64,000 nt of DNA from positions 3,175-67,174 of the forward strand of contig CAVZID010000037.1 of the NCBI GenBank assembly GCA_963775245.1, written 5' to 3'. Positions 52,998-64,000 of the stretch are shown here, piece after piece. The translations under genes and the position numbers were made by a program. Position 1 is the stretch's first letter, and each line of letters begins with the position of its first letter. The notes under the pieces are model-generated. The model worked only from the letters and a program-made list of their open reading frames with translations, was not told the DNA's origin and did not search any database. Origin of the DNA: an uncultured Bacteroidota bacterium (lineage in GTDB: Bacteria; Bacteroidota; Ignavibacteria; Ignavibacteriales; Ignavibacteriaceae).

Positions 52998-54347
52998 ATG
53001 GATAGAATTAATTGTTTTAAAGCCTATGATATTAGAGGCAAGGTGCCTTCAGAATTAAACGGCGAGCTGGCATATAAAATAGGAGTGGCTTATTCCAAAT
53101 TCATCGATGCTGAAAAGATAGTTGTGGGGCATGATATAAGAAAATCTTCCCGGGCAATTTCAGATGCATTAATTAGAGGCTTGAATGATGCAGGTGTAAA
53201 TGTAATTGATATCGGGCTTTGCGGAACAGAAATGATTTACTTTTCAACTCCATATTTCGAAGCAGACGGCGGAATAATGATTACTGCCAGCCACAACCCG
53301 CCGGAATATAACGGAATGAAATTCGTTAGAAAAAATTCTGTACCGGTAGGTTATGACAGCGGATTAAATGAAGTTGAAAAAAAGATTCTTAATGATGATG
53401 TTGATCCCTGGGGGCCGCATGATCCCGGAAAAGTCGAGCATCATGATGTTATGAAGCATTTTATGCATCATCTAACAAAGTTTTATGACGCTCATAAAAT
53501 TAAACCTTTTAATGTAGTTGTAAATGCGGGAAACGGATGCGCAGGGCTTTCACTAGATGCAATTGAAAGCAGCCTTCCAATTAAAATGATAAAAATATTT
53601 AATGACCCTGATCCTGAATTTCCAAACGGCGTACCCAATCCGCTGTTAGTTGAAAACAGAAATTCAACAATAAATGCAGTAAAGAAAAATAATGCAGATC
53701 TTGGTGTAGCATGGGACGGCGATTATGACAGATGTTTTTTCTTCGATGAAAAAGGAAATTTTATTGAAGGGTACTATATCGTAGGATTATTAGCAAAATC
53801 AATTCTTAAAAAACATCCTGGTGAAAATATTGTTCACGATCCGCGGTTAGTTTGGAACACTTTAGAAGTAGTAAATAATGCCGGAGGTAAAGCAGTCGAA
53901 TCAATCAGCGGCCATGCATATATTAAACAAAAAATGAGAGAAGTAAATGCAGTGTATGGTGGTGAAATGTCGGCGCATCATTACTTCAAAGAAAATTCAT
54001 ATTCTGACAGCGGGATGATTCCGTTTTTATTAATACTTCAATTAATGTCCGAAGAAAACAAAAAGCTTTCTGAATTGGTTGAAGAGATGATTGAAAAATA
54101 TCCTTGTTCAGGAGAAATTAATTCAAAGATTGAAGACCCGGCAAAAAAGATTAAAGAAGTCGAAGCAAAATATAAAGACGGCAAACATGATCATTTAGAT
54201 GGCTTGAGTGTTGAGTATCCTGATTGGAGATTCAATTTACGAATGTCCAACACAGAGCCAATCCTCAGATTAAATGTTGAAAGCAAAGGTGATAAAAAAT
54301 TAATGGAAGAAAAGACAGAAGAGTTGTTAAAGATAATTAGATTTTAG
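52998..54347 (+). CDS. phosphomannomutase / phosphoglucomutase (alpha-D-phosphohexomutase family)
   Basis: It has the active-site loop TASHNPPEYNGMK, the metal loop AWDGDYDR and the sugar loop GGEMSAHH. I prefer the ATG at 52998, which has GGAG upstream, over the TTG at 52983. Confidence 0.9.
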   Translation: MDRINCFKAYDIRGKVPSELNGELAYKIGVAYSKFIDAEKIVVGHDIRKSSRAISDALIRGLNDAGVNVIDIGLCGTEMIYFSTPYFEADGGIMITASHNPPEYNGMKFVRKNSVPVGYDSGLNEVEKKILNDDVDPWGPHDPGKVEHHDVMKHFMHHLTKFYDAHKIKPFNVVVNAGNGCAGLSLDAIESSLPIKMIKIFNDPDPEFPNGVPNPLLVENRNSTINAVKKNNADLGVAWDGDYDRCFFFDEKGNFIEGYYIVGLLAKSILKKHPGENIVHDPRLVWNTLEVVNNAGGKAVESISGHAYIKQKMREVNAVYGGEMSAHHYFKENSYSDSGMIPFLLILQLMSEENKKLSELVEEMIEKYPCSGEINSKIEDPAKKIKEVEAKYKDGKHDHLDGLSVEYPDWRFNLRMSNTEPILRLNVESKGDKKLMEEKTEELLKIIRF

Positions 54348-54420
54348 TGGATTTAAAGTATGAACCATATGCTCTTTTCTAGAATTATTATTATTTTTAT
54401 TGAAAGTAATTATATATAAC

Positions 54421-55581
54421 ATGTCAAAACAAATAGCTGAAGTAAATCCGGAAATCTTAAGATGGGCTAGAGAAAGAGCAGGGCTTTCCCTTGATGAAGT
54501 CGCACTTGTTTTTAAAAAAGGACCTGAGGTTATTATTAATTGGGAAACAGGTATTGATTTTCCCACTTACGTGCAACTGGAGAAATTAGCCTATCAGTTA
54601 TATAAGAGACCAATTGCTATATTTTTTTTCCCGAACATTCCTGTTGAACAAGATCCAAAAGAATCTTTCAGAACTTTGCCAATATTTGAAAAGGAAAATT
54701 TAAAAAGTGATTCTGTATTAGCTTTACGTCAAGGTCTAGCTATGCAAATTTCACTTCGAGAATTATGTGATGGTGTAAATCCAAGTAAGAAAAAAATATT
54801 TCAGGATATAACATTAAATATTAATTCAGACATCTATTTTGAGACAAAAAAAATAAGGGAATATATAGCTATTGATTTAACAACACAGAGTAGTTGGATG
54901 AACTCTGAGGAAGCCTTTAAAGTTTGGAGAAACGCTTTCGAAGATTGTGGAATTTTTGTATTTAAACGCTCCTTCAAACAAAAGGATATTTCTGGCTTTT
55001 GCTTAGTCGATAAAGAATTTCCAATAATTTATATCAATAACAGTACAAGTATTAATCGACAAATCTTTACTTTATTTCATGAATTGTGTCATATACTTTT
55101 TAACTTTAATGGTATAACAAAAGAAGACAATTCCTTTATTGATAGCCTTCCACGATTAGAAAAATCAATTGAAATATTTTGTAATGAATTTGCTGCTGAA
55201 TTTCTAGTCCCTTCTGAAGATTTTAACGAAGAAATTAAATCAAAAATAATTTCTGATGAAACTATTTTTAAATTATCAAAGAAATATAAAGTTAGTCGAG
55301 AAGTAATTTTAAGAAAATTACTAGATCGAAAACTAATTTCAAAATCTATTTATGAATCTAAATCCTCCGAATTGAATAATTCATATCTAAGTTATAAATC
55401 AAAAAAAAGTGGTGGAGATTATTACGCAACTCAAGCTGTTTATCTAGGAGATAATTTTCTAAACTTAGCTTTTAGCAAATATTATCAAGGTCGATGTACG
55501 ATAGAACAATTAGCCGAACATTTGAACATTAAAATTAAAAATATTTCAAATTTAGAAAATTTAGTTCTATCCAGGGGATAA
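54421..55581 (+). CDS. XRE-type HTH fused to an ImmA/IrrE (COG2856) zinc-metallopeptidase domain
   Basis: The N-terminal LRWARERAGLSLDEVA...WETG...PTYVQLEKLA reads as an HTH. The HExxH motif is FTLFHELCHILF. I prefer the ATG at 54421. Confidence 0.8.
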   Translation: MSKQIAEVNPEILRWARERAGLSLDEVALVFKKGPEVIINWETGIDFPTYVQLEKLAYQLYKRPIAIFFFPNIPVEQDPKESFRTLPIFEKENLKSDSVLALRQGLAMQISLRELCDGVNPSKKKIFQDITLNINSDIYFETKKIREYIAIDLTTQSSWMNSEEAFKVWRNAFEDCGIFVFKRSFKQKDISGFCLVDKEFPIIYINNSTSINRQIFTLFHELCHILFNFNGITKEDNSFIDSLPRLEKSIEIFCNEFAAEFLVPSEDFNEEIKSKIISDETIFKLSKKYKVSREVILRKLLDRKLISKSIYESKSSELNNSYLSYKSKKSGGDYYATQAVYLGDNFLNLAFSKYYQGRCTIEQLAEHLNIKIKNISNLENLVLSRG

Positions 55582-55583
55582 TA

Positions 55584-56054
55584 ATGATATATGTTTTTGA
55601 TACCAACTGTTTCATTGTCCTGGGTCATTATTTTCCTGAACGTTTCCCAACTTTTTGGACTAATATCAAGGAATGCATTAGTGATGGCAAAATCATATCT
55701 ACTAGAGAAGTCTTTAATGAACTAATTGATAAAGGGAACAAAGAGTTTTTAGATAATTGGCTCAAAGAAAATAAAAATATTTTTTTAACACCAACTTCAG
55801 AAGAACTTACCTTTGTGAAAGAAATTTTCTCCGTACAACATTTTCAACAACTAGTGAAAGAAAAACAAAGATTAAAAGGCACGCCTGTTGCGGATCCATT
55901 TGTAATTGCTTTGGCTAAAGTAAAAAAGGCGTGCGTTATAACTGAAGAATCAATGAAAAAAAATGCAGCCCGAATTCCAAATGTATGTGAACATTTCAAA
56001 ATAGATTGTACAAATCTTGAAGGTTTTATGAAAAGGGAGAACTGGACATTTTAA
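55584..56054 (+). CDS. DUF4411-like PIN-domain-like protein (putative nuclease/toxin partner)
   Basis: MIYVFDTNCFI at the N-terminus carries the PIN-like acidic residue, and ...VFNEL...ADPFVIALA fits the family. The gene starts 2 nt after the ImmA/IrrE gene. The family was assigned from memory of the motif. Confidence 0.65.
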   Translation: MIYVFDTNCFIVLGHYFPERFPTFWTNIKECISDGKIISTREVFNELIDKGNKEFLDNWLKENKNIFLTPTSEELTFVKEIFSVQHFQQLVKEKQRLKGTPVADPFVIALAKVKKACVITEESMKKNAARIPNVCEHFKIDCTNLEGFMKRENWTF

Positions 56055-56070
56055 ACATGATTATATAAAT

Positions 56071-56673
56071 TCATTTCTCAACCGTTACTTCAACCGTAAA
56101 AGGTATTTTTAATTTGTCCCATTCCAGCCTTACTACTGCTGAAGTATCGGAAGTTCTAGTAAAAGTATATTCAAGCCATTCAACAAAATTTCCTTTTTCA
56201 GGTTTCACTTTAAATCTAAAAACATCTTCGGCAATATTATATTCAAAAGCACCCCATTGGTCAGCAACTTTGTTAAAGATTAAAGTCCACTCTCCGTTTT
56301 TAGAAGGAATAATAAAAAAGCTGTAAGAACCGGCTTTTAATTTTTTCCCGTTAATTTTAACATCCGTGCTGAAAGTAAACTTAGTAGCTTCATCTGCACC
56401 GGCTCGCCAAACAACATTGTAAGGAACTAGATTTCCCCAAATTACTCTGCCTTTTACACCGGGACGGCTGTATGAAATATTTACTTTTGTTAACCCAACT
56501 ACCTGCATCACTCCCGCTTTAGGGCTTACTCTTATTTGGTTAGCGTTATATTTTTGTTGTGAATAAGTATAATTTAACGTGGAAGCTGTAATAAATATCG
56601 CAACTAAAATAATACCGGCTAAATAATTCCTCTTCAGCATTAACTGCTCCAATTGATTGAATTCTACTAACAC
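56071..56673 (-). CDS. DUF2911-like exported protein
   Basis: It has a signal/anchor sequence, then SPKAGVMQVVGLTKVNISYSRPGVKGRVIWGNLVPYNVVWRAGADEAT, which matches the DUF2911 pattern. Confidence 0.65.
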   Translation of the reverse strand: MLVEFNQLEQLMLKRNYLAGIILVAIFITASTLNYTYSQQKYNANQIRVSPKAGVMQVVGLTKVNISYSRPGVKGRVIWGNLVPYNVVWRAGADEATKFTFSTDVKINGKKLKAGSYSFFIIPSKNGEWTLIFNKVADQWGAFEYNIAEDVFRFKVKPEKGNFVEWLEYTFTRTSDTSAVVRLEWDKLKIPFTVEVTVEK

Positions 56674-56708: not shown

Positions 56709-57861
56709 TTATTGAGTATTGTCTTTCACATTTTTTAATTCATTAACAACAATATTAATTTCTTCTTTAGTATTATAAAAATGTGGTGCAAATCTCACAA
56801 TGCCTTCTCTTACCGCCCCAATATTTTTTTATTTTTTAATTGGTCAAATAACTTTTGTGAATTTTCATGTTTAAATGAAACTATACCTCCAATATTTTGT
56901 TCTTCACAATTTATTAGAAAAGATTTTATTCCAATTTTATCAAGCTCATTAATAAAATATTTTGAATTTGAAATAACTGTCTCTTCAATTTCATCATTTC
57001 CAAATTCACTGAACAATTTTAAGGAGGCATTCAAAGCATAAATACCTATTGTATTTACGGTTCCGGTTTGCAATGTATCTGCGTTTTCTTTTAATGTTAA
57101 TTTATAGTCCAATAGATTCCATGCATTCTTAACTGATTGCCAACCGGCATACTTTGGAATAAGTTTTTCCTGGAGATTTTTAGATATATAAATAAAACCT
57201 AACCCCTGCAATCCCATTAACCATTTTTGAGTGCCGCAGGAAATATAATCAATATTATCTTTTTGAATATCAAGCCCAATTGCGCCTAATCCTTGAATAG
57301 CATCTACACAAAATATAATTTTATTTTCCTTACAAAATTCTCCCAATTTTTGAAGATCAATTCTGTAGCCGGTTAAAAATTGAACCTGACTGACTGAAAT
57401 TAATTTTGTAGCGGGTTTTACGTTTTCAATAATATCATCAGCTGTAACAATCCCATCATGTGATTTAACAAAATCAATTGCGACACCATCTCTTTCTAAA
57501 TTTAAAAAAGGATAAACATTTGCAGGGAACTCGATATCATTTAATAATATTCTATCACCTTTCTTCCACTGAATTCCTTGCGCAAGAATGTTTAATCCGT
57601 TTGTAGTATTATCAACAAATGCAATTCTATCCAAGTGGTATTAATTAATTTTGCCAGCTCCATTTTTGTGTCTTCAAATACTTTTAACATTGAAGTAAAA
57701 TCATCTATATTAGATTCGCTTTTTTGTTTTACAAGTTCTTTTATAGCTTCAGATACTTTTATTGAAATGGGGCTTGTTGCAGCGTGATTAAAATATACTA
57801 TTCCATTGGACAAATAAGGGAAATAGCTTCTAGCTTTTTTAATTTGATTATCGCTTAACAT
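56709..57861 (-). pseudogene. class V aminotransferase (cysteine desulfurase-like, ~384 aa) interrupted by two frameshifts
   Basis: The N-terminal piece reads YFNHAATSP. The middle piece ends ...LKNKKILGR*. My translation of the third frame gives NIGAVREGIVRFAPHFYNTKEEINIVVNELKNVKDNTQ*, the conserved C-terminus. The junctions are at ~57633-57637 and at the T7 run 56824-56830. Confidence 0.85.
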
Positions 57862-62102: not shown

Positions 62103-63302
62103 TTAATAATAATTATTTTTAAAATAATTATTAAGCCTAGTTTTATTTGCCTTACGAATTTTTGAATGCCCTAATTCATTTATGGTAACCTCGAACAATG
62201 TAATTAAATCTGTTCTATCATAAAAGTATTTGCTATGTGTTGTAAAAAAGAATTGATTTATTGTTGCCTTGTCTATTTCATCATTTATAAATTTAATTAA
62301 TTCAAGTTGATATAAAGGGGATAGATTCAATTCTAATTCTTCTATTAAAATTATCTTTGAACTGCTACTAAAGATATTAATTAAAATATAAATAAGTTGT
62401 TGTATTCCAGAACCATAGTTGATAAGCGGATATCGATTCCCTTTACCATTCTTCAGCATTAGCTCATATTTATTATTAAATTTTGTAAATCCAATTTCTG
62501 GCTTTTCGAGAGGGGAATTTAACAAATGTTGTTTTAATATTTCGATACCTTGATCCTTCACTTTAAAAGAACCGATTGATGATAAAAGGCTCATAAAGTT
62601 TTCATATTCATAAAGATAGAGGGAAAATAATGAATCCTTAAACAAATCAGGTTTTAGATAATTACTATAATTTATATCTTCATTATTTGGCATTTCTTTA
62701 GTATTCAAAGAATCATTTGTAGGTATTCTGTTACTATCTAGAAATAAAACGCAATCATTTAATTCTTTTAAGATAAAATAAAATTGTTCTTGTGAAAGAT
62801 TATTATACCCAGGGAAATAATCACCTTCTTGGAATATGACTTTGTTATTCATTTGAACTTCTTTTAACTCTATCCTTGAAGTTGTTTTATTGGTAGCTAC
62901 AAATTGGCCATTAATAAAAATGTTTGAATAATCCTTATTTGGTATTGTAATTTTTTCTTCTTTTAGTTCTTCTATTAAAGGAATTTCATTATTATTTAAC
63001 TCAAGAGTTATATCGAATTCAATTGGAGAGTCAATATTATTATTAAAAAAAATATACGGAAGATTACTAACTTCCCCTTCCCAGAAATTAGTTAGGTTCG
63101 TAACCTGTCTCCGATTCTCTTCCGAATTTACTTTCACTTGTTGTCCATAAGTTTTAGACTGGAATACTAGACTGAGAAACTTTAGCATATTTGATTTTCC
63201 GCTATTATTAAGACCAAATATCATATTAATATTTCCAAATTTAGAAGCTGGGAAATCGTACAAGCTTTTAAAATTTTTAATATAAAAAGATTTTATTTTC
63301 AT
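62103..63302 (-). CDS. ABC/SMC-like AAA ATPase (AAA_15/AAA_21-type, as found in many anti-phage systems)
   Basis: The N-terminus IKNFKSLYD...NMIFGLNNSGKSNMLKFL is a Walker A. There is a signature-like GSGIQQLI, a Walker B ILIEELELNLSP and a TTHS H-loop. Confidence 0.75.
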   Translation of the reverse strand: MKIKSFYIKNFKSLYDFPASKFGNINMIFGLNNSGKSNMLKFLSLVFQSKTYGQQVKVNSEENRRQVTNLTNFWEGEVSNLPYIFFNNNIDSPIEFDITLELNNNEIPLIEELKEEKITIPNKDYSNIFINGQFVATNKTTSRIELKEVQMNNKVIFQEGDYFPGYNNLSQEQFYFILKELNDCVLFLDSNRIPTNDSLNTKEMPNNEDINYSNYLKPDLFKDSLFSLYLYEYENFMSLLSSIGSFKVKDQGIEILKQHLLNSPLEKPEIGFTKFNNKYELMLKNGKGNRYPLINYGSGIQQLIYILINIFSSSSKIILIEELELNLSPLYQLELIKFINDEIDKATINQFFFTTHSKYFYDRTDLITLFEVTINELGHSKIRKANKTRLNNYFKNNYY

Positions 63303-63304
63303 TT

Positions 63305-64000
63305 TTAACCTATGTAATCTTTAAATGTATTTAAAATATCTTCATTTATTTTACTAAATGATTGACGATCTATAATATGTTTTTCTAGATTCAATGTTAA
63401 AATAAGATGAAACCTAAAAAATACATCAGTGTATTTTTTACCTTTAAATAAAGGATAGTTTTTATTTATTACAATTTTTTTGTTTCTTATTATTAAAGCC
63501 GGGAATTCACTATTTTCATACTCCCAGCTATCTAATTCAAGGTTATAATTAATCTTGCCAAAATCTAATTTGCGCTGAAACTGTTCATCATCTTTAGAAA
63601 TTACAATTGTTTTATTTTCTTTGTTTACCTGCACCGGTTCTTCATTTTTATTTAGCTCTCTTCTTATTACTTTAAATCCTCTATCTTGAAGCTTGTTTAT
63701 TTTTTGTAACGTATTTTTTGAATCAATTGATTTCAAATCTTTAAGTCGGTCAACTTGCTTTACTTCCTTAGAAAAAGTATTTATATCATAAGTTTGAGTT
63801 GCAAGGTTGACAAGTCTGTTTCTAAAATATTCTTTAAGTTTTTCATAATCCTCATCATAATTAAATTTATCTCGGTCTAGTGAAATTAAATCATTTAAGC
63901 CTTCAATAATATTTATATCACCAGTAAGATGGGTTAAACTTGCTCGTGTACCCGATTCTGTTCCTGCACCAAATGTATCTCTTTGACCAACACCAACATT
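63305..64000 (-). CDS. C-terminal part (>=231 codons) of an unknown protein truncated by the window edge and operonic with the AAA ATPase
   Basis: I translated the frame by hand and it is open from 64000 (NVGVGQRDTFGAGTESGTRASL...) to the stop at 63305. The track start at 63736 is an internal TTG. The gap to the downstream gene is 2 nt. Confidence 0.5.
   Translation of the reverse strand, partial: NVGVGQRDTFGAGTESGTRASLTHLTGDINIIEGLNDLISLDRDKFNYDEDYEKLKEYFRNRLVNLATQTYDINTFSKEVKQVDRLKDLKSIDSKNTLQKINKLQDRGFKVIRRELNKNEEPVQVNKENKTIVISKDDEQFQRKLDFGKINYNLELDSWEYENSEFPALIIRNKKIVINKNYPLFKGKKYTDVFFRFHLILTLNLEKHIIDRQSFSKINEDILNTFKDYIG

Follow-up and report, generated by a model that had tools for sequence, protein, structure and literature searches.

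What does a two-gene cassette between housekeeping genes of an uncultured Ignavibacteriales bacterium encode, and how did it get there? The cassette lies on the + strand of a 64,000-nucleotide (nt) stretch of contig CAVZID010000037.1, referred to below as the window, and all coordinates are positions within this window (Table 1). Gene 1 encodes a helix-turn-helix (HTH) domain fused to an ImmA/IrrE-type metallopeptidase, and gene 2 encodes a PIN-like protein of the DUF4411 family. Our analysis points, with a probability of roughly 0.78, to a type II toxin-antitoxin (TA) module of the VapBC52 type (HTH-ImmA/IrrE plus DUF4411.1) that was acquired horizontally by this genome. By its sequence, the locus is a genuine and intact further member of a known and recently characterised TA family.

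The two proteins matched, over their full length, two chains of one Protein Data Bank (PDB) entry, 9VZY. Residues 9-378 of gene 1 aligned to residues 3-383 of 9vzy_A, named "HTH cro/C1-type domain-containing protein" (E 1.8e-22 in a PDB sequence search; 24% identity by BLASTP), and residues 2-156 of gene 2 aligned to 9vzy_D, named "DUF4411 family protein" (E 5e-14, 32% identity). In its molecule names, chain lengths, and residue numbering, this entry agrees with the Mycobacterium tuberculosis VapB52-delta23/VapC52 complex (Rv2515c/Rv2514c) in PMC13273310. VapBC52, consisting of the Rv2515c antitoxin and the Rv2514c toxin, has been described with two structures, 9VZY and 9VZZ (Singh et al., NAR 2026, PMC13273310), and Rv2514c had already been found to be toxic in Mycobacterium smegmatis and to be rescued by Rv2515c (Akarsu et al. 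2019, PMC6504116). VapC52 is a PIN-fold toxin that cuts tRNAs. It forms a 1:2 VapB52:VapC52 complex in which the N-terminal HTH of the antitoxin, its main toxin-binding domain, grips the toxin dimer, while the C-terminal helices occlude an active site. Cys229 caps the zinc of the IrrE-type peptidase and forms a "cysteine switch" like that of CapP, and self-cleavage is induced by single-stranded DNA (ssDNA) at a linker with a conserved F-R motif (PMC13273310). The family had also been predicted computationally. COG2856-Xre fusions in operons with PIN or RelE toxins, Rv2515c being named among them, were predicted by Makarova et al. (2009, PMC2701414), and DUF4411.1 genes located 3' of HTH-DUF955 (COG2856) fusions were predicted to be three-component TA systems by Matelska et al. 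(2017, PMC5499597). The original prediction for this locus had considered the pairing experimentally uncharacterised, which is out of date in view of the toxicity and rescue reported in 2019 and the structure and mechanism reported in 2026. Its proposal that a protease-controlled repressor gates a toxin came close; however, in VapBC52 the role of antitoxin falls to the HTH-peptidase protein, which contacts the toxin directly and cleaves itself, and which thus does more than control a separate repressor.

Profile and fold comparisons pointed in the same direction. Residues 3-156 of gene 2 matched Pfam DUF4411 (PF14367) across model positions 1-159 of 159 (2.2e-35). Its AlphaFold2 (AF2) model had a mean predicted local distance difference test score (pLDDT) of 89.9, and the top Foldseek matches were PIN/VapC structures (1y82, 3zvk, 3h87, and 6a7v, probability 1.0). 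Six acidic residues, D6, E42, E46, D104, E121, and E122, were invariant in an alignment of 33 toxins, and D6/E46/D104/E122 correspond to VapC52 D6/E48/D99/E117 when counted by hand from the 9vzy_D alignment. Gene 1 matched Pfam HTH_3 (residues 13-57, 3.7e-8) and Peptidase_M78 (residues 174-300, 5.5e-24), with an intact HELCH motif at residues 220-224 (nt 55078-55092). Chance cannot account for Pfam E-values of this size. In its AF2 model (mean pLDDT 89.7), the N-terminal HTH matched the folds of ImmR, C.BclI, and DdrO, the middle domain was closest to CapP (7t5t), IrrE (3dti), and PprI (8sln) by Foldseek, and four C-terminal helices were present (334-342, 344-355, 361-368, and 372-385). The PDB set used by Foldseek ends in April 2026 and 9VZY falls outside it; this entry was found by the PDB sequence search. 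The domain content given by the original prediction, an XRE HTH fused to ImmA/IrrE with an intact HELCH followed by a PIN-like DUF4411 protein, was thus recovered in full by these searches, and its reading of the pair as TA or abortive-infection-like gains support from the profile matches, the fold predictions, the synteny described below, and the homology to a solved TA complex.

Searches of other collections placed gene 1 among known antitoxin and defence-regulator models. It matched 15 PADLOC RmrA models (best 5.6e-23), several of them spanning residues 1 to about 310, and also PADLOC capP (1e-21). NCBIfam gave sub-threshold matches only; for example, the spr1629 family repressor/antitoxin model NF052239 scored 44.5 bits over the peptidase region only, compared to a curated cut-off of 335 bits.

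The residues expected to matter in gene 1 were well conserved. In an alignment of 36 antitoxins, F83-R84, H220, E221, H224, E251, and G332 were invariant, and G331 was nearly so. A larger sample was taken from a full-library profile search, which returned 2,694 representatives at E <= 1e-30, and this number indicates that the HTH-M78 antitoxin family is large. Among the best 150 of its 50%-identity cluster representatives, the zinc ligands H220, E221, H224, and E251 were kept in 147, 148, 149, and 148, respectively; position 83 was F in 128 and L in 14, and position 84 was R in 140. The F83-R84 pair aligned to VapB52 F75-R76 by both HMMER and MAFFT, whereas BLASTP set the linker 6 residues off from this pairing. 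By analogy with VapB52, F83-R84 is the probable self-cleavage site of the gene 1 protein.

These data also bear on whether the cassette might be a decaying, non-functional relic. Such an idea draws on the low GC content and low third-position GC content (GC3) of the foreign DNA, on the lack of a terminator of its own or a recognisable promoter in our scans, and on the neighbouring aminotransferase gene, which appears split. However, both reading frames are intact and full length with respect to Pfam models and homologues, and every family-invariant catalytic or motif residue is kept. We consider a relic very improbable and rejected it on the basis of the intact frames and the retained invariant residues.

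The pairing itself was conserved across genomes, as the original prediction needed it to be. The window's own genome has one DUF4411 gene. Eight of 40 related genomes besides it carried the family in 9 loci, at 25-47% identity and at other genomic locations, and in 9 out of 9 an HTH-M78 gene was found directly 5' of DUF4411. In a phylum sample, DUF4411 was present in 38 of 201 genomes and 27 of 110 genera. A scan with one genome per GTDB species returned at least 551 DUF4411 loci. The synteny figures for GTDB rest on the best 80 of these, which are 51-70% identical to gene 2 and come from more than 15 phyla. The hosts of these 80 include Cytophagia, Planctomycetota, Spirochaetota, Cyanobacteria, Poribacteria, Verrucomicrobiota, Chloroflexota, Actinomycetota, Acidobacteriota, Nitrospirota, Deinococcota, several proteobacterial classes, and others. 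Of these loci, 79 had sufficient DNA upstream, and in 78 of them a full-length gene 1 homologue was located 5' of the toxin gene on the same strand. Adjacency here means that the M78 gene ended upstream within 30 nt of the toxin start (GTDB loci) or within about 400 nt of it (related genomes). The same gene pair was found in 3 out of 3 metagenome-contig look-ups, in unrelated surroundings. The family also occurs on a few plasmids (13 of 72,556 records, of which 6 are conjugative) and is rare among phage records (2 of 50,697).

A single locus departed from this arrangement. In L074 (OY843751.1, 2531-4000), the sole one of the 79 in which the M78 gene was not adjacent, about 1.47 kb separates the two genes, possibly an inserted element or a third gene.

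Comparison with related genomes showed where the cassette had entered. The neighbourhood of an S46 peptidase, a zinc-ribbon gene, a phosphomannomutase/phosphoglucomutase (PMM) gene, DUF2911, an aminotransferase, and a Lon-like protease was kept in 4 same-genus and 3 same-family genomes; in a fifth same-genus genome (G003), the DUF2911-to-Lon side alone was found. PMM and DUF2911 were convergent neighbours, about 50-250 nt apart, in 7 of the 8 related genomes examined, and the spacers of the two closest relatives contain a hairpin. Homology to the same-genus empty sites ended at 54341 in 3 of 4 comparisons and restarted between 56060 and 56086, just ahead of the DUF2911 stop (56071, minus strand). 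Because homology stops and resumes at these points, a block of about 1.72 kb (54342 to about 56059) is, on this comparison, foreign and has taken the place of the spacer, with its terminator, that separates convergent PMM and DUF2911. The block holds the two genes only. No recombinase and no meaningful terminal inverted repeats were found in it, and no target-site duplication was detected, the longest direct repeat across the two junctions being 8 nt. The convergent genes now lack an intervening terminator, and transcription may therefore run on from PMM into the cassette and, in antisense, from DUF2911 into the toxin gene.

The intergenic site was seen to vary even without the cassette, because the spacers of sister species hold nested palindromic elements of differing length that resemble repetitive extragenic palindromes or miniature inverted-repeat transposable elements (empty sites L024, 7740-7930; L026, 8585-8796; and L028, 1468-1714).

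Among the available copies, the one most similar to the cassette is carried by an unplaced Logan metagenome contig, with 84% protein identity for the toxin and 69% for the antitoxin. At the nucleotide level, its homology begins at the ATG of gene 1 and ends with the stop codon of gene 2, and for this reason the two genes appear to be the mobile unit. The next-closest toxins were from a Cytophagia metagenome-assembled genome (70%) and from Planctomycetota and Spirochaetia (66-68%), compared to at most 47% within the same family. Both this pattern of relatedness and the empty sites indicate that the cassette is a horizontal acquisition. Directly upstream of the Logan copy (L041, 160-1473) is a gene for a 437-amino-acid (aa) protein with Mrr_cat and Peptidase_M78 domains, that is, a restriction-endonuclease-like domain and the same type of peptidase.

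An alternative role for the pair would be that of an ImmR/ImmA-like or CapH/CapP-like switch controlling another gene set, such as a mobile element or a cyclic oligonucleotide-based antiphage signaling system (CBASS) or similar, with DUF4411 as a passenger. The M78 and HTH domains do resemble those of ImmA/ImmR, IrrE/DdrO, and CapP/CapH, and the genome has other CapP-like genes. However, no integrase, CBASS, or other cargo adjoins the pair, which makes up the whole gene content of the foreign block. The limits of the Logan homology and the synteny in 78 of 79 loci mark the pair as a conserved unit, and the homologue VapB52 binds its PIN partner directly in the crystal structure. A switch of this kind is therefore extremely improbable, and the ImmA/ImmR-type element switch was rejected since the HTH and the protease are fused, the block is without cargo, and the pair is syntenic.

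How would a VapBC52-type module work at this locus? By inference from VapBC52, the gene 1 protein would bind a dimer of the gene 2 protein in a 1:2 complex, with its N-terminal HTH domain holding the toxin and its C-terminal helices covering the active site. A stress or infection cue, which is ssDNA in the case of VapB52, would activate the M78 peptidase, which would then cut its own linker at or near F83-R84, and the toxin-binding domain would be lost. The freed PIN nuclease would cut tRNAs or other RNAs and arrest growth, which would stop a phage from replicating or else stabilise the locus. For the present cassette, the toxicity, the trigger, and the part in phage defence are all inferred by analogy.

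The trigger is one step at which gene 1 probably departs from its model. In the cysteine-switch layout, found in VapB52 and also in CapP, a cysteine nine residues past the second histidine of HExxH caps the zinc. The column of VapB52 C229 is occupied by Thr233 in gene 1. Among the 150 cluster representatives, this column held D in 63, T in 46, S in 12, F in 7, E in 6, and C in 4; pooled, Thr/Ser accounted for 58, Asp/Glu for 69, and Cys for 4. Among 86 antitoxins translated from cassette loci, a count that leaves out the window's gene 1 and VapB52, T was found in 48, S in 21, D in 12, and C in 1; the four zinc ligands were invariant in this set. With Cys in only 4 of 150 representatives, the cysteine switch is not general to the family. 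Having a Thr in place of the zinc-capping Cys means that auto-inhibition of the peptidase must differ or be absent here, and from the sequence this step of gene 1 probably differs from that of VapB52 and CapP. One may speculate further that the peptidase in this branch of the family is gated by means other than a cysteine switch, that the cue is not generic ssDNA, and that the intact pair is an abortive-infection system with a trigger of its own; this extension is tentative and somewhat doubtful.

Several observations weigh against a VapBC52-type module that acts as described. First, the switch cysteine is not kept, and without it the ssDNA trigger may not transfer to gene 1. Second, the identity to VapBC52 is low, being only the 24% and 32% given above for the antitoxin and the toxin. 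Third, gene 2 matched no PADLOC model (0 families at E <= 0.1), gene 1 being the only one of the pair with a match. Fourth, recognisable control elements were lacking: there was no sigma-70-like site 5' of gene 1 (site count 11, compared to 10.5 expected from shuffles), no perfect palindrome of 6 nt or longer that could serve as an operator in the 100 nt upstream of gene 1, and no terminator-like hairpin at the cassette in a hairpin scan. Finally, in M. smegmatis challenged with phage D29, over-expressed VapC52 alone was protective whereas co-expressed toxin and antitoxin were not (PMC13273310). Because the co-expressed pair gave no protection from D29, a defence role of the intact pair is unproven even for VapBC52.

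This last result fits a selfish TA module, in which the same parts would serve addiction or stress response with no anti-phage role; loss of the module would kill or arrest the cell, and the module would spread horizontally. The minimal block points the same way, since it consists of two genes with no recombinase and lies among housekeeping genes and not in a contiguous defence island, as do the missing PADLOC model for gene 2, the rarity of the family in phage records, and its presence on a few plasmids. On the other hand, the antitoxin is built like the DNA-damage and infection sensors CapP and IrrE and matches RosmerTA antitoxin models, the ImmA-type systems include validated defence systems (PMC10440598), and a second candidate defence pair with an AriA/AbiLi-like ATPase lies 6 kb away. 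A purely selfish module is unlikely in our judgement, and a VapBC52-type TA module whose toxin is released by self-cleavage of the antitoxin remains the preferred reading.

Within the cassette, as originally noted, the genes are separated by 2 nt: gene 1 closes with TAA (55579-55581), and the dinucleotide TA leads on to the gene 2 ATG. The purine run within the end of gene 1 (Table 1) is consistent with translational coupling to gene 2. An alternative TTG start for gene 1 exists at 54400; the N-termini of 35 homologues line up with the ATG instead. The 73-nt spacer 5' of gene 1 presumably holds the cassette promoter. Nothing upstream of gene 1 was conserved in comparison with the upstream regions of six homologous cassettes, and a search of 54000-56400 against Rfam gave two chance-level matches only (E about 0.7-0.8, far under gathering scores).

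Table 1. Positions of the cassette, its domains, and the ends of the foreign block in the window
Feature	Positions	Strand	Description and basis
Left part of foreign block	54342..54420	+	Last PMM codon (TTT, Phe), PMM stop TAG at 54345-54347, then a 73-nt spacer, 19% GC
Gene 1	54421..55581	+	386 aa from ATG; HTH-ImmA/IrrE (Peptidase_M78), VapB52-type antitoxin/sensor
XRE-type HTH	54457..54591	+	Residues 13-57; Pfam HTH_3; aligns with VapB52 N-terminal domain
FR linker motif F83-R84	54667..54672	+	Between N-terminal and peptidase domains; from alignment
Peptidase_M78 (IrrE-like) domain	54940..55320	+	Residues 174-300; contains HELCH, third zinc ligand E251, and Thr233
C-terminal helical region	55411..55578	+	About residues 331-386, starting at the conserved GG; aligns with 9vzy_A C-terminal residues
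AGGGGA, Shine-Dalgarno-like purine run	55573..55578	+	5 nt 5' of gene 2 ATG, within the end of gene 1; from sequence reading
Gene 2	55584..56054	+	156 aa, DUF4411 PIN-like nuclease, VapC52-type toxin; N-terminus MIYVFDTNCFI
Right end of foreign block	56055..56059		Ends about 12 nt from DUF2911 stop; from empty-site comparison

Pfam identified the flanking genes, as originally proposed, as PMM, a four-domain phosphomannomutase/phosphoglucomutase with PGM_PMM domains I-IV, and a DUF2911 protein. The GC content was 29.0% for the cassette, compared to 36.0% for PMM, 35.2% for DUF2911, and 32.7% for the genome, and GC3 was 0.18 for gene 1 and 0.25 for gene 2, compared to 0.28-0.30 for the flanking genes. 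Among genome windows of 1723 nt, the cassette ranks at the 8th percentile, about -1.3 standard deviations. The cassette had been called visibly more AT-rich than its flanks; this difference is real but modest.

Other loci near the cassette and elsewhere in the genome carry related parts. At 62103-64000 on the minus strand, a 399-aa AAA ATPase matched PADLOC PDC-M38A (2.6e-21), AriA (1.1e-19), and AbiLi (3.5e-19); the partner open reading frame (ORF) on its 5' side, separated by 2 nt, runs off the end of the window and gave no PADLOC match. The two form a candidate second defence pair 6 kb downstream of the cassette, with Lon-like protease and pyruvate kinase genes between. The class-V aminotransferase next to DUF2911 (56810-57861, minus strand) appears as two overlapping ORFs, one of 274 aa and one of 89 aa, that lie in different frames. 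The related genomes likewise match it as two segments, one ending at residue 76 and the other beginning at residue 2; either a shared frameshift or an error of assembly could explain this. Elsewhere, three further loci with M78 peptidases were noted. At G000:C15:183004-183369 (L128, 362-2317, minus strand), an HTH_3 protein of 112 aa and a Peptidase_M78 protein of 282 aa abut a 255-aa protein, which had no Pfam or PADLOC match; this three-gene module is of a split-gene, Rosmer-like kind, with a putative effector. A full-length CapP-like peptidase of 258 aa (PADLOC capP, 5.7e-58) is found at G000:C14:78081-78386 (L129), where a 137-aa ORF that belongs to no known family overlaps it on the 5' side, and a shorter one of 175 aa (capP, 6e-40) at G000:C26:276334-276606 (L130).

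The locus adds a member from a poorly studied lineage to a widespread and mobile TA family whose first structure and mechanism date only from 2026. The proposed cysteine-switch/ssDNA mechanism, which comes from a single solved example, depends on a residue that is missing from gene 1 and from most of the relatives sampled. The locus also illustrates neatly how a block of two genes without a recombinase took the place of a terminator spacer where housekeeping genes converge, and the empty sites are available in sister species. Neither the switch residue nor the insertion is likely to surprise a specialist much.

Among known systems, the locus is most readily compared with VapBC52. The two share the antitoxin-then-toxin order and full-length homology of both proteins, and their sizes are similar (386 aa compared to 393 residues in 9vzy_A, and 156 aa compared to 162 residues in 9vzy_D). 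Gene 1, like VapB52, has an XRE HTH N-terminal domain, an IrrE-type M78 domain with HExxH+E, an FR linker motif, and a C-terminal helical region, and gene 2, like VapC52, has a DUF4411 PIN domain with four conserved acidic residues. The differences are the low identity (24% for the antitoxin and 32% for the toxin), Thr233 in place of Cys229, and the host, which is a member of the Ignavibacteriales and not an actinobacterium. The HTH-DUF955 plus DUF4411.1 TA system predicted earlier (PMC5499597; PMC2701414) is identical in architecture to the locus, but those studies, which are predictions only, proposed cleavage of a separate Xre repressor and not self-cleavage.

The locus also resembles RosmerTA (RmrT/RmrA) and the NetFlax ImmA hub, in which an antitoxin with an HTH and an ImmA-type peptidase is combined with a variable toxin partner. 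In NetFlax, PIN-like partners join the ImmA antitoxin hub (Ernits et al. 2023, PMC10440598). Unlike RosmerTA, gene 2 matched no PADLOC RmrT model when individual models, as opposed to PADLOC or DefenseFinder system rules, were compared, and some validated Rosmer toxins are of another type, such as one that depolarises the membrane (PMC10440598). CapH/CapP of CBASS, IrrE/DdrO of Deinococcus, and ImmA/ImmR of the integrative and conjugative element (ICE) ICEBs1 likewise couple an M78 fold to an XRE HTH substrate, and the signal for CapP and PprI is DNA damage or ssDNA. However, these systems keep the protease and the HTH substrate as separate proteins whereas the locus fuses both, and their output is transcription of other genes whereas here, by homology, a bound nuclease would be set free. 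Nor is there a CBASS, an ICE, or a radiation regulon next to the pair. Finally, the locus shares with canonical VapBC an antitoxin-first bicistron and a PIN fold with four acidic residues (Foldseek probability 1.0 to VapC2, VapC3, VapC11, and VapC15). The canonical M. tuberculosis VapBs are about 8-13 kDa (PMC13273310). A canonical VapB has no enzymatic domain and is removed by host proteases, whereas the gene 1 antitoxin, at 386 aa, has a peptidase of its own.

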